Below are positions 1-7,463 of a stretch of 10,788 nucleotides of DNA, piece by piece. Both the position numbers and the translations under genes were made by a program. Source of the DNA: a virus (lineage: Monodnaviria; Loebvirae; Hofneiviricota; Faserviricetes; Tubulavirales; Inoviridae); IMG/VR virus record IMGVR_UViG_2711768069_000001; one strand, given 5' to 3'. The stretch's first letter is position 1, and each line of letters starts with the position of its first letter. The notes below the pieces were generated by a model that searched no databases, had not been told where the DNA came from, and saw only the letters and a program-made list of their open reading frames with translations.

Positions 1-180
1 TTACTTAATTTCATCCTGGATATCGATGCCTTCTGGTCCAAGATCTTCCAGTAAGGACTCAAGAATACACATCAGTCTATATTGATTTATGCCTGTACGG
101 GATGTGCTGTTTTCCCAGGCATCCCGTTCACGTCTGACCTGCTTCAAACTTTTTTCAATTTTTTCAGCTGTGATCGTCAT
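1..180 (-). CDS. Hypothetical small protein (59 aa from ATG at 180; track ORF extends to 228); stop codon is the first 3 nt of the window
   Basis: ORF track. The ATG at 178-180 overlaps the 3' end of the upstream HigA-like gene by 17 nt. Only a weak Shine-Dalgarno. No recognisable family. Confidence 0.35.
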   Translation of the reverse strand: MTITAEKIEKSLKQVRRERDAWENSTSRTGINQYRLMCILESLLEDLGPEGIDIQDEIK

Positions 181-430
181 ATTTGCCTGCTTCTGCTTTA
201 TTTTTCTGCTGTCGCAGATCATATGCATACTGAAGACGTAACCAAAAATCAGGAGTGCTTCCCATTATTGCTGCGATCGGAACGGCCTGCTCAGCGGTTA
301 ACGCCATTTTCCCTTCTAAAAAAGCTGGCTGGATGCCAGTTTCTTCGATAAATCGGTTAACACTAATGCCCATCTCAGCCAACTCTCTGGCAATAATTTC
401 GCCCGGATGAGACACATCAAATTGCTGCAT
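164..430 (-). CDS. HigA/VapI-family HTH (XRE-type) antitoxin-like DNA-binding protein, 88 aa
   Basis: Protein carries the family signature HPGEI...(HTH)...GSTPDFWLRLQYAYDLR. ATG at 428-430 with an AGGA Shine-Dalgarno 9 nt upstream. The 18-bp palindrome at 455..472 sits in its promoter region. Confidence 0.8.
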   Translation of the reverse strand: MQQFDVSHPGEIIARELAEMGISVNRFIEETGIQPAFLEGKMALTAEQAVPIAAIMGSTPDFWLRLQYAYDLRQQKNKAEAGKYDDHS

Positions 431-454
431 AACTAATCATCCTGTCAGATGCGG

Positions 455-472
455 ATTTGCGCATGCGCAAAT
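455..472. promoter_or_regulatory. Perfect 18-bp palindrome ATTTGCGCATGCGCAAAT, copy 1, about 25 bp upstream of the HigA-like start; candidate operator
   Basis: Read directly; identical second copy at 830..847. Confidence 0.55.
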
Positions 473-488
473 TATCACTTTGAGCATG

Positions 489-803
489 TTAGATCGATTG
501 TTCAAAGTAACGGGCCAGAGCCGTATAAATCAGTCGGTTTAACGGTTGTTGATCGTCTTCGGCCTGCTGTTTCGCTCGTTTGATCGTATCCGGATGGAAC
601 CAGATCCCCTGATAATCTGAGCCTTTCGGACTGGAGAAGTACCGTATGTGTACATGCCCTGCTTTTCGTTGGTTCAGATACCACTCAACGATTTCACTGG
701 CTATGTCGGCCTTTAACTCATCGCGAATGCCTGCCAGATTATTAACCGGCTGGATTAACTCATCTTCAATTTTCAGTCGGATAAACTTCAACTTTGTAGC
801 CAT
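489..803 (-). CDS. Hypothetical protein, 104 aa from ATG at 803 (track ORF extends to a GTG at 941); candidate partner or toxin of the HigA-like protein
   Basis: ATG at 801-803 is preceded by a GGGGA Shine-Dalgarno at 5 nt spacing, and the 18-bp palindrome at 830..847 lies 27 nt upstream. Position upstream of a HigA-family gene is typical of HigB-type toxins, but no toxin motif was recognised. Confidence 0.5.
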   Translation of the reverse strand: MATKLKFIRLKIEDELIQPVNNLAGIRDELKADIASEIVEWYLNQRKAGHVHIRYFSSPKGSDYQGIWFHPDTIKRAKQQAEDDQQPLNRLIYTALARYFEQSI

Positions 804-829
804 AGATTCCCCATAAGAATTGACGAGAA

Positions 830-847
830 ATTTGCGCATGCGCAAAT
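830..847. promoter_or_regulatory. Perfect 18-bp palindrome ATTTGCGCATGCGCAAAT, copy 2, 27 bp upstream of the ATG at 803; candidate operator
   Basis: Read directly; identical to 455..472, 375 bp away. Confidence 0.55.
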
Positions 848-937
848 CACGCCGTTCATGATTTACACAATCAATCAACAGTCGGTGTCTCAGTACGGCC
901 AGCTCCTCACGGAGCTGCGGGGCTGGCCGCCCTGCTC

Positions 938-2149
938 TCACCGCCTGATTTTTCTGGCCTGAAGTACAATAATGATGTCTGTTTTTGCTTTTTCAGTTGC
1001 CGTTGTTCCGAACCATGACGGCAAAAATGACAGGCCCGTATCTGCATTACTGTCTTTATTCTCAGCCAGACCACCAAGTAAAATTATGTCGCCATCCTTG
1101 AGCGAAACATCGGTGTTCACCTCCCGTTTAATGAGCGTCGGGCTGTTATTCACCCCAGTCTCTGTTTTTGCAAAATTAGACAGTTGCTGATGAATATTAA
1201 GGTCAATCGTAGCAGCCCGGATTTGCGGCTGAACGTTAAAAATTACGCCACTTGAACGATAATCAATGGACTGAACCGGACGACCATCAACATAGCTGAC
1301 CTGACCGAGTACCGGCACGTCAGATCCCACAGAAAATGATGCTTTAGAGCCATTTCTGACCCGCAATTGTGGCGAACTGACGACGTGAAAACGGCTGTCT
1401 GTTCTGAACAACTCATAAAGTGCATCGAGCGATCCAGAACTGAAACGGACAAAGTTGCTGAGTCCTTGTGCAGTACCCGTTTCTATTGTGAATTTTCCCG
1501 ACATAAGTTTGGCAGCCAGTGCCAGGCCAGAACCATTTCGCTCAGACGTCTGAACCTCAAACACGTACCCGGCGACAATAACTTCTTCGGCGGCCCGGTC
1601 GATAAGAGGAAGCAAATCTTCGACCCGCTGAATGTCTTTTTTCGTACCGTAAAAAACAAGTACATCCCCATTTCTGCTCAAAAAATCGGATGCGGTATTG
1701 TCTTTAATCATCGCAGGAGAAACATCGCCATGCCCTATTTGCCCACCATTTGAAAATGACCCGCTCACTTGTGACTGAAGAATATCAGCCAGATAAGCAA
1801 CAGAACGGTACTGTGGTGTGTAAACAAAAGAATATTTCGGGGCTTCGTATACTTTTTTCTCCTGGAGATAAAAGTAATCCACACCATTTTTTCTGGCTAC
1901 AGAGACTCCGGCATTCTGGAGATAACGCATAATAAACGTATACTCATCCATATCTGGCGTAATATTGAAATTAACTTGTCGTTTGTCCGTGATAAGTTCA
2001 GGAGAAACCATGAACGGTTTTCTCATAACTTCAGTATAAAACAAAGTAATGGCATCATTAAGCGTTAATCCTGAGAGATTCAGTATAACGCCTTTTGATA
2101 ATGCAGGTGGAATCATAAATACCATTATTATGATATAAAATAATTTCAT
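938..2149 (-). CDS. gIV: Filamentous-phage secretin pIV (gene IV), 403 aa from ATG at 2149
   Basis: Signal peptide MKLFYIIIMVFMIPPALS resembles M13 pIV MKLLNVINFVFLMF. Secretin motifs VFEVQ and LLGGL...DTGLSFLP match recalled M13 IFEVQQ and LLGGLTD...DSGVPFLS. GGGGG Shine-Dalgarno before the 2149 ATG; last gene of the Ff order. Confidence 0.9.
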   Translation of the reverse strand: MKLFYIIIMVFMIPPALSKGVILNLSGLTLNDAITLFYTEVMRKPFMVSPELITDKRQVNFNITPDMDEYTFIMRYLQNAGVSVARKNGVDYFYLQEKKVYEAPKYSFVYTPQYRSVAYLADILQSQVSGSFSNGGQIGHGDVSPAMIKDNTASDFLSRNGDVLVFYGTKKDIQRVEDLLPLIDRAAEEVIVAGYVFEVQTSERNGSGLALAAKLMSGKFTIETGTAQGLSNFVRFSSGSLDALYELFRTDSRFHVVSSPQLRVRNGSKASFSVGSDVPVLGQVSYVDGRPVQSIDYRSSGVIFNVQPQIRAATIDLNIHQQLSNFAKTETGVNNSPTLIKREVNTDVSLKDGDIILLGGLAENKDSNADTGLSFLPSWFGTTATEKAKTDIIIVLQARKIRR

Positions 2150-2150
2150 A

Positions 2151-3176
2151 TTAACCCCCAGTAAAATAGGTGACAATTTCACCATCAATGATTCCACTTA
2201 AAGTAAAACCTTCTCCGTCGAACTGATTTGCCGGTAGCGTTCTAAACCGACCATTGCTGTCTGTAAGAACAACCTTGCTGACATAATCTGATTTTAACTC
2301 CCCGGCAATACGCCAGCGCTTTGAGTACGGGGCATCAGGTTTCGCAATCTTTTCTGATGAAGGCAGTACAACCTCCGGTTCGGTATGTTTCGGCTCTGGT
2401 ACTGACTCTCCTCTAATATCCACCCAGACCGTTCTTATTGAATATATAGAAGCCAGTACAATAAATAATAAAAATGCAATTTTCACCCAAAGAAAGGCGG
2501 ATGAAAAAACGTTTTGTCTAGAGTCTGTTGTCGCTTCCATTCCGTTAGTGGTTTCATAAGATTTGTATAATTCAAAAACGGCTTTTTTGTACTGATAGTT
2601 ACGAGTACTGACTTTATTATTTTTGAATACTTTGGCACCAGAAAAAACATCGACACGATATGACTTTGATAGCCCCAAAGATTTTAGTTTGGTCATCCGG
2701 TATGTCGATTCAATACGCTCTTTAAGATACCGGGGTACACCATCTACACCCTGATTGATGATGACCAAATCACATGATACCCCACTAACAGCATGTGTCA
2801 TATGACGGTGCATTGAAATAAATCTTTTATGTGCCTCAGATAGTTTTGAGTCCGATGGCCATATTGACCATAATTCATCAAGACAAATCAGATCACCATA
2901 TTCACAAAATGCTGCTTTTTGTTCTGAAGATTCATCATCAGAGTAAAAAGGGAAGAAATCATCCTTTAATATTTCATCCGTCGATGCGAAAACAACACGA
3001 CCAGGCTGCTTAGTCTTGAATTTAGAACGACAATACTCATGTATTTTCTCTTCATTTATCCCTTTGATATTGGTGATTACACGGCGGCCTGCTGAAACCG
3101 CAGGGATAATAACACTGTAAACAACCTCGTATGTTTTACCGCTCCCCATCACACCCATATACAATGATACAGCCAT
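2151..3176 (-). CDS. gI: Filamentous-phage assembly ATPase pI (Zot-like), 341 aa
   Basis: N-terminus MAVSLYMGVMGSGKT resembles M13 pI MAVYFVTGKLGSGKT (Walker A). Internal hydrophobic segment. AGGA Shine-Dalgarno. Sits between the gVI-like and gIV genes. Confidence 0.9.
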   Translation of the reverse strand: MAVSLYMGVMGSGKTYEVVYSVIIPAVSAGRRVITNIKGINEEKIHEYCRSKFKTKQPGRVVFASTDEILKDDFFPFYSDDESSEQKAAFCEYGDLICLDELWSIWPSDSKLSEAHKRFISMHRHMTHAVSGVSCDLVIINQGVDGVPRYLKERIESTYRMTKLKSLGLSKSYRVDVFSGAKVFKNNKVSTRNYQYKKAVFELYKSYETTNGMEATTDSRQNVFSSAFLWVKIAFLLFIVLASIYSIRTVWVDIRGESVPEPKHTEPEVVLPSSEKIAKPDAPYSKRWRIAGELKSDYVSKVVLTDSNGRFRTLPANQFDGEGFTLSGIIDGEIVTYFTGG

Positions 3177-3180
3177 AAAA

Positions 3181-3468
3181 TTATCCTATTACCGGAATTC
3201 GACGAATAATAAAGCGAGTCACAAAAGCTGAAAGTATTATGTTAATCCCATCTATAACTTTAAAAACAGAGAAGAAATATTTCAGGCTATCTGGAATACT
3301 TGAAATTAACGCAAGAAGTGGGAGTTGGCGATTAACCATATCGAGAATAAGCGGCACGAATTCCTGCACAATAAAATACAATGCAAAAAACACCGTAAAC
3401 TTCACAATAACTGAGCGCAATAAAAACCCAAGAACGCCATATAAAACAGAGGTCATGATGCCAAACAT
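3181..3468 (-). CDS. gVI: Minor coat protein pVI-like, 95 aa, hydrophobic
   Basis: Small, strongly hydrophobic protein between gIII and gI, the pVI position in Ff. Call is positional plus composition. Confidence 0.65.
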   Translation of the reverse strand: MFGIMTSVLYGVLGFLLRSVIVKFTVFFALYFIVQEFVPLILDMVNRQLPLLALISSIPDSLKYFFSVFKVIDGINIILSAFVTRFIIRRIPVIG

Positions 3469-3477
3469 AAATCACCT

Positions 3478-4743
3478 TTATGCAGAAAGGATAATTCTGA
3501 ACGCTGCTATTGAGTAAATGAACAGAAAAATAACACCAATCATCGCAGCGTTATTATTTAATAATGTACAATGTGTTTCTAACTTATATTGTCCGTTAAA
3601 AACATCCAGTACAGGTTTTGGACACTCCGCATATTTAATTCTTTCGCTTTCTGCATTAAGTGCATCGGCTGAATCTTCAAAGGGGTTGAATGATAATAAT
3701 GGAGATAAAATTTCAGTACCTGCAGGTATATTTTCCAGTTCAGGCGGCCCAATACCAGGATCATCACCAAGATTAACCTGTTCTCCTGTCGATGGATTGG
3801 TTGGTGTTGTCCCTGTTGTGTCAGCAGGTAGTGTAAAATCGGGTTTGTCTGACGGTTTGAGAAAGTCAGATACAGCGGGCTTTGCAGCACCAGTTGAAGC
3901 AGTTACATCACGCGCTGTCACTGGTCTGGTGTGGTCGTATGCAAAACCAGAATACCCTGCTTCGGAGGCTGCTTTTTGCCATGCATTATTTACAACATCA
4001 GAAATAACTTCTGGCGAAAGATCTGTCTGCATTTCCGTATCTGAAATGCTATTAATAGCATCCTGTACGCTAACGGTTTTAATTACTTCATTACTACCCG
4101 GCACATAATCAGGCTGACATGTAGGCATAACCTTATTTGTACCGCAGGAAACAAGGTTTGCAGTTCGTGATGCCCAAAGCTGTGTTTTAGATGAATCAAT
4201 ATAAAATTTGATGGTTCTTAAATCAGACCTTGTCGGGTCTGCATTATATTGCTCAACTATGTATGTCTGACAGAACGTCGGATTATGCTGGCATATCGAC
4301 TGAGCTCCCTCAGTTGCTGTAACATAGCTTTCTGCGCCAATATTCCAGTAAAACCCTTTAACACCCTGCTCTCCCGTTATTTCTTTTACTTTGATTTGTA
4401 CGGAGTCCTCAGTTTCAATTAGCCATGCCACCGCACCGGAAGCGGCAAGAGCTATAAGCGTACCGCGGCTTAACAAAGCCCCTCTGAGTCCAACTGATAA
4501 CCACGAACGACCAGAGACACCTGCAACGGTATAAGCTTTCGAACCTGAAGCGGTAGAATTTAGATAACCTGAAATACCTTTTAATGTTCCGTAGTATCGA
4601 GGATCATTCGCTGAGAAACCACGCTGTGTAATTTTGTTTTTAATGGTTCCTGAAATGGTCTGATTAATAACAGCTGCGTTCTCTGCACTGTATGAATAAA
4701 AGCTAATGATAGATAACAACAATGCAATTAAAAGAGTTTTCAT
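3478..4743 (-). CDS. gIII: Adsorption/minor coat protein pIII-like, 421 aa
   Basis: Signal peptide MKTLLIALLLSIISFYSYSAEN resembles M13 pIII MKKLLFAIPLVVPFYSHSAET. Pro/Thr-rich linker and C-terminal hydrophobic anchor. AGGAGG Shine-Dalgarno. Size and position match pIII. Confidence 0.85.
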   Translation of the reverse strand: MKTLLIALLLSIISFYSYSAENAAVINQTISGTIKNKITQRGFSANDPRYYGTLKGISGYLNSTASGSKAYTVAGVSGRSWLSVGLRGALLSRGTLIALAASGAVAWLIETEDSVQIKVKEITGEQGVKGFYWNIGAESYVTATEGAQSICQHNPTFCQTYIVEQYNADPTRSDLRTIKFYIDSSKTQLWASRTANLVSCGTNKVMPTCQPDYVPGSNEVIKTVSVQDAINSISDTEMQTDLSPEVISDVVNNAWQKAASEAGYSGFAYDHTRPVTARDVTASTGAAKPAVSDFLKPSDKPDFTLPADTTGTTPTNPSTGEQVNLGDDPGIGPPELENIPAGTEILSPLLSFNPFEDSADALNAESERIKYAECPKPVLDVFNGQYKLETHCTLLNNNAAMIGVIFLFIYSIAAFRIILSA

Positions 4744-4840
4744 TTACCCTCCTAATCCTTTTATAACTGCCCAGGCACAAAGAAGACCCCAGAGAAAACA
4801 GGTAATTAGCCAGAAATGTAATATCACAGAAACTCCTGAA

Positions 4841-4858
4841 GGCAGGGTTTCCCCTGCC
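4841..4858 (-). terminator. Candidate intrinsic terminator hairpin just downstream of gVIII (7-bp GC stem, 4-nt loop)
   Basis: GGCAGGG-TTTC-CCCTGCC read directly, starting 8 nt after the gVIII stop on the transcribed strand. Ff phages have a terminator here. The downstream U-tract is weak. Confidence 0.4.
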
Positions 4859-4865
4859 CGTATTA

Positions 4866-5087
4866 TCAGGCCCCACGGATCATACGCAGAACTGTTTTTG
4901 CCCCGGCAATGGAGGCATAAAGACCAACCAAAATCCCGGCTACGGACATAATTGCCACAATTACACTGTCGAATGACACTGCATTAGTCAATGCAGTAAA
5001 ATCCACTCCGGCAGACTCTGCTGCATTAGCCAGAAAAGGTACTACGGAAGCAATAACAACAGCTGATTTCAAAATGGTCTTTTTCAT
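4866..5087 (-). CDS. gVIII: Major coat protein pVIII precursor, 73 aa from ATG at 5087
   Basis: MKKTILKSAVVIASVVPFLANA signal peptide, then a roughly 50-aa mature peptide with acidic N-terminus, hydrophobic core and basic C-terminus (KTVLRMIRGA). Same 73-aa length and architecture as M13 pVIII. Confidence 0.85.
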   Translation of the reverse strand: MKKTILKSAVVIASVVPFLANAAESAGVDFTALTNAVSFDSVIVAIMSVAGILVGLYASIAGAKTVLRMIRGA

Positions 5088-5089
5088 AA

Positions 5090-5308
5090 TTAGGCTCTCT
5101 TTATCATATTTAAAACGAGTCCAATACAGTGTGATACTAAATAAAGGACGATTACAGAGGTAAAAGCAGTTCCCCATACCAGTGCAATATCTTCTGCCGG
5201 AGGGAGCTGCTGATATGGCAACTCAGAGGAATTTAATGTTATTATCTGGCAGTTCTGCTCAGTATTGCCATCACAAATCTTACCAGTCATTATATTCTGA
5301 GAAGCCAT
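5090..5308 (-). CDS. Small membrane protein at the gVII/gIX position, 72 aa; putative minor coat protein
   Basis: ATG with AAGG Shine-Dalgarno directly after gV stop and 2 nt before the gVIII start. C-terminal transmembrane helix. Larger than M13 pVII or pIX (about 32-33 aa each). Confidence 0.5.
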   Translation of the reverse strand: MASQNIMTGKICDGNTEQNCQIITLNSSELPYQQLPPAEDIALVWGTAFTSVIVLYLVSHCIGLVLNMIKRA

Positions 5309-5317
5309 AGCGATACC

Positions 5318-5605
5318 TTATTTAGTCTGTTCTTTATTTTCCTGATATGGAATCAGAACGATTCTTCCTACCCGTAATTTCTGGAAATCACCGACGTAAA
5401 TACTGGATGGATGTAATGTATATAATCCCGCCGGGTATGGTGCCTGACCCGCGTCAAGATTCAACTTGAAGAGTTGTGGATAATCCTGGCCAAGAAAAAT
5501 ATATGCAGACTGCTCATTAATTGTATACGCCTGCCCGGTCGACTTCGACACGCCAGAACGCGTATCGGCAATGGCCTGAGACTGTTTAATTTCAATCTTA
5601 ATCAT
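5318..5605 (-). CDS. gV: ssDNA-binding protein gVp (gene V), 95 aa
   Basis: Strong similarity over most of its length to recalled M13 gVp: MIKIEIKQSQA..TRSGVS..NEQ..YP.L.K..LD.GQ..Y..GLYT.H.SS..VG.F. GAGGA Shine-Dalgarno. Confidence 0.92.
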   Translation of the reverse strand: MIKIEIKQSQAIADTRSGVSKSTGQAYTINEQSAYIFLGQDYPQLFKLNLDAGQAPYPAGLYTLHPSSIYVGDFQKLRVGRIVLIPYQENKEQTK

Positions 5606-5617
5606 TTAAATATCCTC

Positions 5618-6733
5618 TTATGCAACATGCAAATAACGTGGTTTCACATACCATGATGGAATAAAGCATTCACTTACTGATACTTCTCTCACTTTCTTAA
5701 CAATAACGGGGCTAAATTTGGAAATATTACATCGCTGAGCAATGTCAATACCTATTTTTCTAAGCCTGGCACGATGGGTTTGCACCTGTGTTTTAGAAAA
5801 ATCAAATGAGTGACCGTGCATCCACTGGATAGCATACATCGCAGTGGTATTCGCTGATCGAGTTGAGTCAACAATGCCTTCACTGATTAAATGTTCACTA
5901 ATCGTTTCAAAATCCATCGACGTCACCATAAGCTTTTTATCAAGAGCTAAAAAATCATCATGTAAATTATTGAGTATTGAATAGTCGGAAAGCCCCCAGT
6001 AAATAAGATGGTTACGTTGCAGATACCGGGATTTAAGTTTTTGCTCAAATCTGACTACGCCCTGTTCCTGACAGAAATCAATAATCTTTTTGATGTATGA
6101 AACTTCAGCTGATGAATCCCCGAATTTATTCTTTATTTTATTAAGGGAGTGAAGCTTAATTTCATGTGCTTTATTATATACAGTCGGATAAATGAGCAAG
6201 GCGTTTCCTTTTTTGGATAGCCAGTCAACTGATTTACCGTTGCTGTGTAATCGCGGCTCACTATTGCGATACCGTAATGTTGAAAGGCCCGATATATAGT
6301 CATCTACATTATCTGCTCCGACTGTTCGGTTGGATGTAATGTGAATTTCACGAATACATGCGCCATCAGTAACCGTTCCGGCCTTTTCAGTTTCACTTGC
6401 CTGTCTCTGCCACAATTTCGTACATTTTGTGAATTCCGGCAGACCAAGGTCATTCAGGATCCGGTTGTATACCTGCACACAGGCATCAACAGAAGTGTGA
6501 CCAAACAAATTGTCCAGTCTGTTCCATCGGGATGGATTTCCCGACATTTTCAGAATCGAACCTTTAATCGATATCGAAACCTGATCGCAAAAAGATCCTT
6601 TATGTTGAAACACAGGCTGATTCAGTGAACCGGCCTCCCCTGTTTCAAGCTGAATGCGCTGATAAGCCACTTCACCCAGGATAGGAAGCTGGTAACCAAA
6701 GTCCTGTTCGATGGTAAGCCAGTCAAAAAACAT
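5618..6733 (-). CDS. gII: Rolling-circle replication initiator pII-like, 371 aa from ATG at 6733 (track ORF starts at a TTG at 6817)
   Basis: Large ORF directly upstream of gV as in Ff, divergent from the repressor. GGGAGA Shine-Dalgarno before the 6733 ATG. Assignment rests mainly on synteny and size. Confidence 0.75.
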   Translation of the reverse strand: MFFDWLTIEQDFGYQLPILGEVAYQRIQLETGEAGSLNQPVFQHKGSFCDQVSISIKGSILKMSGNPSRWNRLDNLFGHTSVDACVQVYNRILNDLGLPEFTKCTKLWQRQASETEKAGTVTDGACIREIHITSNRTVGADNVDDYISGLSTLRYRNSEPRLHSNGKSVDWLSKKGNALLIYPTVYNKAHEIKLHSLNKIKNKFGDSSAEVSYIKKIIDFCQEQGVVRFEQKLKSRYLQRNHLIYWGLSDYSILNNLHDDFLALDKKLMVTSMDFETISEHLISEGIVDSTRSANTTAMYAIQWMHGHSFDFSKTQVQTHRARLRKIGIDIAQRCNISKFSPVIVKKVREVSVSECFIPSWYVKPRYLHVA

Positions 6734-6883
6734 GTGTCTCCCGGAATTGACGCGCAAGGGTCTAAACTGATCTTTAACGGTGTCAGTTATACTAAATTGG
6801 AGAGATCTCAGTGTCAATATAATTGATACCGTAAAATGTCAAAACTGACCCTCGGTGTCAGCATGCTAAAAACAGGAGGTAGA

Positions 6884-7369
6884 ATGAATGCCTGTATGAA
6901 TAAAACAGAGAGTTCACTGGTAATGGCAGCAGACAAAGCATGCGCAGAAAGGATCAAACAATCGATTCTTCAGAACTTCACGTACGATGATATTGAAAAT
7001 GAAACCGGGATCAGTGTCAGTACATTGAAACGCCTGGCATCTGGTGACCGTGAACCGAAACTCATCGAAATTCGACAGATTGCAAAAGCTACAGGAAGGA
7101 ATCCGGTTTGGTTGGCGTTTGGAAACGACGCAGGTTATGAAATTGAAACCGTGTCCGCAGATATGAAATTAGTTGAGCCAACAGCCAGGTACGAAATTAA
7201 AGGAGCTACAGATAGCTCAGCCGATCATGAAGTAAAGATCAGGGTCATCGCTGCGATAAAAGACATGCGTTTGGAAGATGTTGTTTTTATTGAAAGAATG
7301 ACAGAGTTACTCAATCTCCAGAATACAATTCAGAACATTTCTGGACGAAAAATGAAGCCGCCAAGATGA
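6884..7369 (+). CDS. Phage HTH transcriptional regulator, putative lysogeny repressor, 161 aa from ATG at 6884 (track ORF starts at 6836)
   Basis: HTH-like segment ETGISVSTLKRLASG near the N-terminus. Divergent from the replication gene, as rstR is in CTXphi. AGGAGG Shine-Dalgarno 4 nt before the 6884 ATG; start remains uncertain. Confidence 0.6.
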   Translation: MNACMNKTESSLVMAADKACAERIKQSILQNFTYDDIENETGISVSTLKRLASGDREPKLIEIRQIAKATGRNPVWLAFGNDAGYEIETVSADMKLVEPTARYEIKGATDSSADHEVKIRVIAAIKDMRLEDVVFIERMTELLNLQNTIQNISGRKMKPPR

Positions 7370-7376
7370 TAACGTG

Positions 7377-7441
7377 CCCCGGGAAACCGGGGTAAAGTTC
7401 GGGTGTCACAGAACCCCGAACCGCTTCGCGGTACAAATTTT
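7377..7441 (+). terminator. Three GC-rich stem-loops between repressor and cargo gene A; last one followed by a T-run; possible terminator or attenuator
   Basis: Stem-loops read directly: CCCCGG-GAAA-CCGGGG (7377-7392), GTTCGGG-N11-CCCGAAC (7397-7421), ACCGC-TTC-GCGGT (7420-7432) then ACAAATTTT. Hairpins 2 and 3 share bases 7420-7421, so they are mutually exclusive. Confidence 0.3.
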
Positions 7442-7463
7442 ACACACAGCAGAGGAAGGCGGT

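Follow-up and report, generated by a model that had tools for sequence, protein, structure and literature searches.

A probable temperate inovirus prophage at dif beside hipBA in Escherichia coli: a CUS-1/YpfΦ-type mosaic with a putative If1-type replication module

The closest described counterparts of the element reported here, which fills most of a 10,788-nt stretch of DNA (IMG/VR record IMGVR_UViG_2711768069_000001, Inoviridae; hereafter the window), are the dif-integrated inoviruses YpfΦ (CUS-2) of Yersinia pestis and CUS-1 of E. coli O18:K1:H7. These two phages, which are 99% identical to each other over 7.1 kb, have genomes of 8.7 kb with 13 open reading frames (ORFs) in two orientations, an RstR-like regulator with variable ORFs beside it, both a Zot protein and a secretin, and inverted XerC/XerD sites; they form tandem arrays of two to four copies in which an intact dif is regenerated at one end (PMC4266046; PMC10354491). 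CTXφ of Vibrio cholerae integrates as folded single-stranded (+) DNA, with an attP fold of about 150 nt (PMC5357621). Hypervariable defence-gene regions (pHVRs) have already been described in Vibrio dif inoviruses (PMC12715192), and ISKpn21-type "transporter" insertion sequences (IS), which target dif and carry unrelated passenger genes, were reported without mention of phages (bioRxiv 10.1101/2022.12.17.520857; PMC10132070).

Here we found that the window very probably holds most of an intact temperate inovirus prophage of 9,432 nt, inserted at dif beside hipBA, with a mosaic genome of CUS-1/YpfΦ type and an integration pattern of CTXφ/YpfΦ type. An earlier note on this DNA had described positions 938-7369 as an Ff (M13)-type core joined to a repressor and to Xer-type integration, and had implied that the combination of repressor, dif integration and own secretin was new. 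This combination is already known from CUS-1 and YpfΦ; what is new is the mosaic relative.

The prophage and its core genes

The right end of the window encodes hipA (9200-10522) and hipB (10522-10788), which identifies the window as E. coli chromosome at the replication terminus, and foreign DNA occupies positions 1 to about 9112. Indeed, when 5,426 complete E. coli genomes were compared, most matched the window only from about 8930 or 9035 onward, and the remainder, that is the prophage part, was present in only nine. The copies in these nine genomes of different sources are 99.7-99.9% identical, and eight of the nine genomes carry at least two. Strain PCP06021 has three head-to-tail copies of a 9,000-bp unit that includes window positions 1-937 and the gene downstream of the gene for a helix-turn-helix (HTH) protein; between the window and a PCP06021 copy, identity is 99.9% for positions 1-7431 and 99.4% for 9035-10788, and just the stretch 7432-9034 shows no relationship.

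Exact look-up of a protein encoded by the variable cargo located a contig of GCA_014186995.1 (L026) matching the window at 100% identity. Between its two XerC arms the prophage there measures 9,432 bp and spans window positions -319 to 9112, with K-12-type chromosome beyond the dif at its left end. It extends about 320 bp to the left of the window start, and positions 938-7369 represent only about two thirds of it; outside them lie a three-gene accessory module, four copies of the palindrome TTTGCGCATGCGCAAA, a conserved 56-bp element that we call el56, the cargo cassette and attP. An assembly index lists the exact variant of the window in 87 of its blocks. In 43 of these 87 blocks the longest contig carrying the window cargo protein is just 5-10 kb, the size to be expected in short-read assemblies if tandem arrays had collapsed or if replicative forms were present at high copy number.

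The core genes all lie on the minus strand and the HTH gene is divergent, on the plus strand (Pfam, PHROGs):

938-2149, minus strand: pIV-type secretin, outer-membrane export channel, 403 amino acids (aa) (Pfam Secretin, 7e-25; PHROG 1012 "protein IV of M13", 7e-124)
2151-3176, minus strand: pI/Zot assembly ATPase, 341 aa (Pfam Zot, 1.7e-25; PHROG 197, 1.9e-65)
3181-3468, minus strand: DUF2523 minor coat protein in the pVI position, 95 aa (Pfam DUF2523, 1.5e-13)
3478-4743, minus strand: adsorption protein in the pIII position, 421 aa (PHROG 7187 and 3942 on the C-terminal part)
4866-5087, minus strand: pVIII-type major coat protein, 73-aa precursor (PHROG 2186 virion structural protein, 2e-18)
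5090-5308, minus strand: 72-aa ORF with a C-terminal membrane segment, in the pVII/pIX position (PHROG 3679)
5318-5605, minus strand: gV-type single-stranded-DNA-binding protein, 95 aa (Pfam Phage_DNA_bind, 2e-24)
5618-6733, minus strand: rolling-circle replication initiator Rep, If1-type, 371 aa (Pfam G2P_X_C and Phage_CRI)
6734-6835, no strand: divergent rep/HTH control region, with short two-copy repeats of CGGTGTCAG type as weak evidence
6836-7369, plus strand: XRE-family HTH protein, 177 aa, putative repressor in the rstR position (Pfam HTH_3, 6e-07; PHROG 3557, 3e-24)

The sequence features expected of an inovirus were found: the genes run in the canonical order of modules and encode a Zot/pI ATPase, a Rep, a single-stranded-DNA-binding protein and a small major coat protein that has a signal peptide. 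The core ORFs are intact and of constant length across assemblies. The element thus appears to be a real and intact temperate inovirus that is probably active. On these points the earlier note was right: a complete inovirus gene set sits at dif, with a divergent HTH regulator and, unlike in CTXφ, a secretin gene of its own. Its proposal of XerCD-type integration also stands as far as the insertion at dif, the Xer-type pattern and the lack of an integrase are concerned, while the attachment sites lie outside the 938-7369 interval to which it was tied. By megablast, the core matched none of the deposited phages, and only sensitive DNA and protein searches were informative; searches of the window for tRNA genes and Rfam families found none.

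Judged from its fold family and position, the HTH protein is a putative phage repressor; its match to the RstR family is weak and under the cutoff. Between positions 6757 and 6861, the rep/HTH region contains two copies of CGGTGTCAG, the repeat CTCAGTGTCA and an imperfect inverted repeat of 35 nt. They may be repressor operators, although repeats this short count for little. The window has no LexA box.

The attachment site and integration at dif

The right end of the prophage and its junction with the chromosome are organised as follows:

9031-9057, plus strand: attP site A, dif-like, GGTTCGCACAA-TGACG-TTATGCTAAAG, bottom strand of the folded attP(+), kept in every lineage examined
9058-9090, no strand: GC-rich hairpin (GGCCGCTGCG, loop, CGCAGCGGCC) between sites A and B, which caps the folded attP
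9091-9112, minus strand: phage-derived part of attP site B, an XerD-like arm TTATGTTGAAA and an 11-nt spacer TGTCATACACG; 9112 is the last phage base
9113-9123, minus strand: XerC arm GGTGCGCATAA of the non-canonical hybrid site, an exact match on the chromosome side of the crossover
9124-9166, no strand: 43-bp chromosomal flank, of which the phage carries a second copy beside its own XerC arm

On the plus strand, site B is the reverse complement of GGTGCGCATAA-TGTCATACACG-TTATGTTGAAA. The exact XerC arm GGTGCGCATAA stands at the K-12 dif position relative to hipA and is followed by a K-12-identical flank. Allowing up to 3 mismatches, no canonical dif was found inside the window: the site there is a hybrid with an 11-nt spacer, detected through its XerC arm.

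The phage (+) strand corresponds to the minus strand of the window. Folded in silico, attP(+) forms a forked stem in which the XerC arms are paired, followed by a top-strand bulge of 5-6 nt, paired XerD arms and the terminal GC hairpin (dG = -32.6 kcal/mol, z = -8.5). The same fold was obtained, again in silico, for six variants or lineages, with z = -7.4 to -9.4. The GC hairpin looks like a bidirectional terminator too.

We propose that in the packaged (+) strand the inverted dif-like sites around the GC hairpin would fold into a forked stem that mimics dif. Host XerC would exchange one strand pair between this stem and dif, and replication would then fix the insertion. Since XerC would cut after the top-strand XerC arm, the hipA-side junction should consist of the chromosomal XerC arm and the phage spacer, a dead hybrid site, while the far-end junction should join the phage XerC arm to the dif spacer and XerD arm, that is a perfect dif. 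Both predicted junctions are found in the PCP06021 array and in GCA_014186995.1: a perfect 28-bp dif lies 309 bp to the left of window position 1 in the latter, and another at the far end of the former. A regenerated dif usable for chromosome resolution and for further integration would explain tandem arrays, which comprise three copies in PCP06021 and two or more, with different cargo, in TO73 and L029.

Other E. coli phages share this arrangement. The sister phage A37 is found in two forms: at hipA as a prophage that is partly in tandem, and as a circular record of 7,439 bp (NZ_CP195780.1, annotated as a plasmid) with a double-site attP; this record is very likely the phage replicative form. 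Its junctions are as predicted, with the phage flank at the inter-copy junction and the chromosomal flank at the hipA junction. Strain MS20655 carries another tandem dif inovirus (NZ_CP082080.1, about 1574011-1587400) with a unit of about 8.5 kb and the same attP type, present in only 3 of the 5,426 genomes. The 11-nt spacer occurs as TGTCATACACG, TGTACGACACG, TGTCATACGCG, TGTGCTACACG, TGTAACACGCG and TGTACGACTCG, and that of MS20655 is a 10-nt variant, TGTCAACGCG; all start with TGT, as does the dif spacer TGTATA, end with CG and diverge after TGT. The attP module of about 94 bp is widespread (652 of 5,426 complete genomes).

No integrase or recombinase domain was detected in any ORF of the 9.4-kb unit. 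Together with the folding double-site attP, the hybrid site with a regenerated dif and the tandem arrays, this fits the CTXφ-type pattern of an integrative mobile element exploiting Xer (IMEX; PMC5357621), which was also proposed for YpfΦ (PMC4266046), with a dependence on Xer that is predicted from sequence. As in CTXφ, two inverted dif-like sites make up a folded (+) single-stranded attP (PMC5357621; PMC4439123), the outcome is consistent with XerC-only strand exchange and arrays are formed; a divergent repressor gene beside rep, a Zot-type pI and cargo beside attP are also common to both. The window phage differs from CTXφ by its own secretin, by a Rep without detectable similarity to RstA, by an el56 unlike ig-1, by an attP of 93 nt as compared with the fold of about 150 nt, by the lack of a LexA box in the window and by its E. 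coli host.

The phage copy of the 43-bp flank is identical at 39-43 of 43 positions to the hipA-side flank of dif (L026 1564-1606; L001 5692-5734) and is not found in the A37 and MS20655 phages or in the dif prophage of E. coli UTI89. Together with the XerC arm it creates direct repeats of about 54 bp that bracket the prophage. We hypothesize that RecA-dependent recombination between these repeats could excise a single copy and restore a complete replicative form; the flank copy may itself be the trace of a past aberrant excision.

Mosaic ancestry and competing readings

Ff phages are not temperate and have neither attP nor repressor. To place the core, its proteins were compared by BLASTP with those of M13, If1 and IKe. 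The gV protein does resemble M13 gV, as the earlier note had it (53% over 86 aa, E = 3e-28), and equally IKe gV (52%); E for the two lies at about 1e-28 to 1e-30. The claimed likeness of the secretin to M13 pIV is a real but distant homology (26% over 285 aa, E = 5e-18; 26-30% across Ff and IKe). The supposed M13-like N-terminus of pI comes down to its first 37 aa, around the Walker A/P-loop (40%, E = 0.07, not significant). As for the signal peptides, that of pVIII is similar to its M13 counterpart over 25 aa (52%, E = 7e-4), with no similarity beyond it, whereas pIII aligns over 95 aa including the signal peptide at 26% identity with a non-significant E = 0.026. No match was found for pVI in M13, If1 or IKe, and Rep gave nothing meaningful against the gII proteins of M13 and IKe (best alignments of 15-44 aa, E = 0.017 or worse). 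The gene order is indeed that of Ff, but it is the generic inovirus order. Only gV is therefore Ff/IKe-like within the proposed "Ff-type core"; Rep is of another family, without a gII-type initiator and Ff origin, and pI past the P-loop, pIII, pVI and pVIII lack significant Ff or IKe similarity.

The replication initiator points to If1 (Infulavirus) instead, with 72% identity to If1 ORF320. By tblastn, this Rep type was found in 22 of 50,697 phage records, among them If1, Alteromonas phiAFP1, gut and saliva metagenome inoviruses and some Pseudomonas and Vibrio phages; no Ff phage is among the 22. The Rep of the A37 phage is 73% identical to that of the window. The likeness to If1 extends to one non-coding element:

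7376-7431, no strand: el56, 56 bp, located just 3′ of the HTH gene and folding into three hairpins on the phage (+) strand; candidate (+) origin

Indeed, el56 is 96% identical over 50 nt to the major intergenic region of If1, in the same orientation, and 96% identical in the A37 phage, and it is better conserved than the rep genes of these two phages (only about 69-71% nucleotide identity to the window rep). Beyond Rep and el56, If1 differs: its pI aligns at 26% over 125 aa of the N-terminal part (E = 0.004) and its pIV at 21%, its gV, pIII, pVI and pVIII give no significant match, and it has no attP. To our knowledge, If1 does not integrate.

The core of el56 also occurs in Alteromonas phiAFP1 (97.6% over 41 nt, with a Rep only 51% identical) and in three metagenomic inoviruses, and was not found in M13 or IKe. 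Seven of the eight phage records with el56 belong to the 22 with this Rep type, and the order is in every case rep, small divergent ORF, el56. Hairpin 2 (GTTCGGG, loop GTTCTGTGACA, CCCGAAC) is nearly invariant, whereas six of the seven pairs of hairpin 3 show compensatory changes that keep the structure. Conservation, synteny and co-occurrence with the Rep family together make it fairly probable that el56 is the (+) origin or a Rep recognition element of If1-type Reps; a host-primed minus-strand origin is an alternative. A packaging signal is unlikely, since phages whose pI and coat proteins are unrelated have el56 in common. Two other assignments were rejected. Against the CTXφ origin, RstA is unlike this Rep, and ig-1 shares with el56 only a non-significant 9-mer. 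Against a part of an ISNCY element, el56 lies outside the transposase gene, is conserved at about 95% as compared with about 82% for the IS, and is present in IS-free phages including If1. The literature searched holds no mention of the el56 core sequence. If its role is as proposed, el56 is a candidate origin for a widespread and unstudied Rep family (If1, Alteromonas phiAFP1, gut-metagenome inoviruses).

The sole "CTXφ" match to el56 lies in uncharacterized flanking DNA of V. cholerae strain JS9803. There, an el56-like core (AF416590.1; L019 1936-1972; 92% over 37 nt) is found in 2 kb of DNA past the attRS of the CTX core, and no Rep homologue was found beside it in the available 1.9 kb. This suggests a previously unrecognized neighbouring element with a putative If1-type origin in a Vibrio IMEX array.

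The morphogenesis genes have other affinities. In tblastn searches, pI belongs to a Zot clade that includes CTXφ and phages of Vibrio and Xanthomonas; metagenomic inoviruses give its best match (41%), and the best phage match of pIV (49%) belongs to the same set. A scan of genome contigs with pI, which covered one genome per species and so detects close relatives only, found Betaproteobacteria relatives at 35-41%. Overall, pI, pIV, pVI and pVIII are closest to gut-metagenome inoviruses (41-49%) and to other E. coli dif prophages (42-61%). Among the latter (A37, MS20655 and UTI89 comparisons), identities are 52-61% for pIV, 51-54% for pVI and 45-57% for pVIII; the conserved C-terminal domain of pIII is 27-38% identical, while its N-terminal, receptor-binding part is unique to the window phage. 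The 72-aa ORF is 51% identical to the ORF in the same position of the A37 circular record. For the MS20655 phage, pIV is 60% and pI 43% identical to the window proteins, and its Rep is of RstA type (35% to CTXφ RstA).

Strain UTI89 (O18:K1:H7, the CUS-1 serotype) carries a prophage at dif/hipA whose layout is that published for CUS-1 and that of the window phage. Identities between the two are 52% for pIV, 51% for pVI, 52% for pVIII, 42% for pI, 32% for the pIII C-terminal domain and 57% for the HTH domain. CUS-1/YpfΦ and the window phage are alike in the dif site (beside hipA in E. coli), the attP type, the regenerated dif, the arrays, the lack of an integrase and their own secretin. One strand holds small terminal ORFs and genes for secretin, Zot, DUF2523, pIII, pVIII, single-stranded-DNA-binding protein and Rep; the other strand holds the HTH regulator, the variable ORFs and attP. 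The UTI89 prophage differs by its unrelated replication module: it has no counterparts of the window Rep and gV, its own Rep being distantly gII-like, it uses another DNA-binding protein and it lacks el56, whereas the window phage combines an If1-type Rep with a gV of Ff/IKe type. Nucleotide similarity is confined to attP and two short stretches at about 68-69%. The accessory module after pIV is also different (a HigA-like HTH gene and four palindromes in the window phage), as is the cargo, and the UTI89 prophage lacks the 43-bp flank. No CUS-1-type strain was among the complete-genome matches to the window prophage. The MS20655 prophage was also considered as CUS-1 and rejected, as just three genomes carry it and UTI89 is not among them.

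From these comparisons, the window phage is best described as a CUS-1/YpfΦ-like chassis with an If1-type replication module, a related chassis and, lacking close similarity, apparently not the CUS-1/YpfΦ lineage itself. On this mosaic view, pVIII, pIII, the DUF2523 pVI, pI/Zot, pIV, the HTH regulator and attP would derive from CUS-1/YpfΦ-type enterobacterial dif inoviruses, and a separate replication module would comprise the If1-type Rep, el56 as probable (+) origin and the Ff/IKe-type gV. E. coli hosts at least four dif inovirus lineages (the window phage, A37, MS20655 and the CUS-1-type UTI89 prophage) which share a morphogenesis chassis and a near-identical attP hairpin and have exchanged replication modules. 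Recognising them guards against annotating such prophages as "M13-like" or as "GspD/Zot toxin" loci.

Derivation from an Ff phage (M13, f1 or fd) whose core gained a repressor and an Xer attachment site is largely refuted and has very little left to recommend it. The gV and pIV similarities and the gene order are what speak for it; the If1-type Rep, the absence of significant similarity in pI, pIII, pVI and pVIII past the P-loop and signal peptides, and the 42-61% identity of the morphogenesis genes to other E. coli dif prophages all speak against it, as does the grouping of pI with Zot, for which neither the 25 matches listed nor the organism tally of the 96 hit records includes Ff, If1 or IKe. 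It is also conceivable that integration used the double-stranded replicative form, either by VGJφ-type Xer recombination at site B or by RecA. The 43-bp flank copy beside a perfect XerC arm provides the homology of about 54 bp and the direct repeats that the RecA route would use, and the YpfΦ authors invoke homologous recombination for changes in array size (PMC4266046). We nonetheless regard this route as quite improbable: every lineage has kept the inverted partner site and the hairpin, with the strong folds given above, the A37, MS20655 and UTI89 phages show an identical junction pattern without the flank, and the variant spacers begin to differ exactly at the XerC cleavage position. As a duplex, site B would moreover have a spacer of 11 bp, as compared with 6-8 bp in known Xer sites.

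Concerning activity, the element might be a domesticated or defective prophage that makes no virions and is kept for its cargo or regulators. Several observations lean this way and at the same time weigh against the active CTXφ/YpfΦ-type phage that we favour. Searches of deposited phages, plasmids and IMG/VR found no free circular record or virome contig of the exact lineage, only chromosomal fragments. The prophage of GCA_014186995.1, identical to the window, is single-copy, and under the strict CTXφ model origin-to-origin rolling-circle replication from a single copy yields no virions. Degraded IMEX remnants are also common at the dif locus. To these are added, on the side of ancestry and replication, that el56 does not significantly resemble the CTXφ ori(+) mapped by experiment and that the UTI89 prophage was taken as CUS-1 by serotype, location and published gene layout, not by reference sequence. 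A defective prophage nevertheless seems unlikely. All core ORFs are intact and constant in length, copies from unrelated strains are 99.7-99.9% identical and yet carry at least five different cargo cassettes, and the sister phage A37 has a circular record. The heterologous tandem arrays imply repeated recent integrations. A probably active temperate phage, predicted to produce virions, accommodates these observations best.

The cargo slot and the accessory module

Between el56 and attP lies the only part of the window that is unrelated to the PCP06021 copy:

7432-9030, plus strand: variable cargo cassette of four ORFs (7464-7850, 7860-8129, 8129-8608 and 8645-9028), G+C 30-38%

ORF2 of this cassette encodes an ECs_2282-family zinc-ribbon protein with a weak PDC-M14A match. 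PADLOC and Pfam searches assigned no confident function to the window cargo ORFs, and a nucleotide search of the cargo against complete E. coli genomes and plasmids gave no match. In copies that are otherwise 99.9% identical, it is replaced by unrelated cargo: a 358-aa protein, an MtlR-like protein with a DUF2971 protein (PDC-S31, E = 4e-48), a 250-aa protein, or the variant of an IMG/VR contig, so that at least five different cassettes occur among near-identical copies. On one side homology stops precisely where el56 ends, on the other precisely where the site-B spacer begins; the attP region, with about 90-95% identity, moves with the cargo. Origin-to-origin replication of the CTXφ kind, running across heterologous arrays, would leave such a pattern, and so would, equally well, homologous recombination within the conserved flanking sequences.

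Similarly to the Vibrio pHVRs (PMC12715192), a variable region of about 1-2 kb, often with anti-phage genes (here DUF2971/PDC-S31 and others), occupies a fixed slot in a dif inovirus. The Vibrio slot lies between zot and xafT, whereas in the window phage the slot is bordered by the repressor gene and el56 at one end and by attP at the opposite end; no XafT homologue was found. A further difference is that the boundaries of the window slot, el56 and the attP hairpin, recur in ISKpn21-type transporter IS elements. Indeed, a unit made of el56, cargo, site A, the hairpin and the XerD arm of site B was found in three phage-less contexts, between the transposase gene and the right inverted repeat of ISNCY/IS1202-family elements, in their passenger region:

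L006 1362-4175: el56-to-XerD-arm unit
L011, about 3420-5560: el56-to-XerD-arm unit
L012, about 4001-4925: el56-to-XerD-arm unit

The cargo in the IS slot is an AbiJ-NTD4/DUF7014 protein on the E. coli 2021CK-01361 chromosome, a ThsB-like TIR protein with a PDC-M50A protein on the IncFIA plasmid pECO-816c, and a Fic/Doc protein on a Klebsiella IncF plasmid. The 2021CK-01361 element has imperfect terminal repeats of 50 nt and a 5-bp duplication, and lies 5 bp from the XerC arm of a true dif. Among plasmids, 423 records match el56, which is probably explained by the presence of the slot inside IS elements on IncF plasmids.

As a tentative and rather doubtful extension, the dif locus of Enterobacteria might work as a cassette exchange, in which el56 and the attP hairpin bound a portable slot of 1-2 kb, mostly holding candidate anti-phage genes, that is shared by inoviruses and ISKpn21-type IS. 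Rep-driven rolling-circle replication from one origin to the next, through heterologous prophages in tandem, could shuffle cargo and attP together, much as CTXφ hybrids form, and would account for homology breaking where el56 ends and where XerC cleaves; ISKpn21-type IS would also carry the slot onto IncF plasmids. That the same boundaries enclose candidate defence genes in a phage and in dif-targeting IS on conjugative plasmids suggests a possible route for small defence genes between phages, chromosomes and plasmids. We consider el56 and the IS-shared cargo slot the parts of this work that most deserve follow-up.

Another element without an integrase was noticed at L006 4193-7392, between the IS and hipA. 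It is bounded by a dif-like hybrid site and carries a diverged copy of the 43-bp flank and a gene for a protein with a TolA C-terminal domain, which could act as a decoy against the pIII of filamentous phages.

At the other end of the prophage, to the left of the secretin gene, the accessory module comprises:

1-180, minus strand: 59-aa ORF, last gene of the module, annotated in PCP06021 and inside the tandem repeat unit
164-430, minus strand: HigA-family HTH protein, 88 aa, probable regulator (NCBIfam TIGR02607, 55.6 bits with a cutoff of 47.7; RefSeq HigA)
456-471, no strand: 16-bp perfect palindrome TTTGCGCATGCGCAAA, candidate operator, one of four copies
489-803, minus strand: 104-aa ORF with a weak ribbon-helix-helix-like C-terminus, annotated as a coding sequence in relatives (weak Arc-like and DUF6364 matches only)
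831-846, no strand: second copy of the palindrome TTTGCGCATGCGCAAA in the window, upstream of the 104-aa ORF

Position 1 of the window falls at the stop codon of the 59-aa ORF, for which a family search gave no hit. The palindrome TTTGCGCATGCGCAAA has two exact copies in the window, where 0.01 would be expected, and two further intergenic copies 18 and 116 bp to the left of position 1 (L026 1756 and 1854). The four copies flank the 104-aa ORF and the pair formed by the HigA-like gene and the 59-aa ORF, and are probably the operator set of a second regulatory module.

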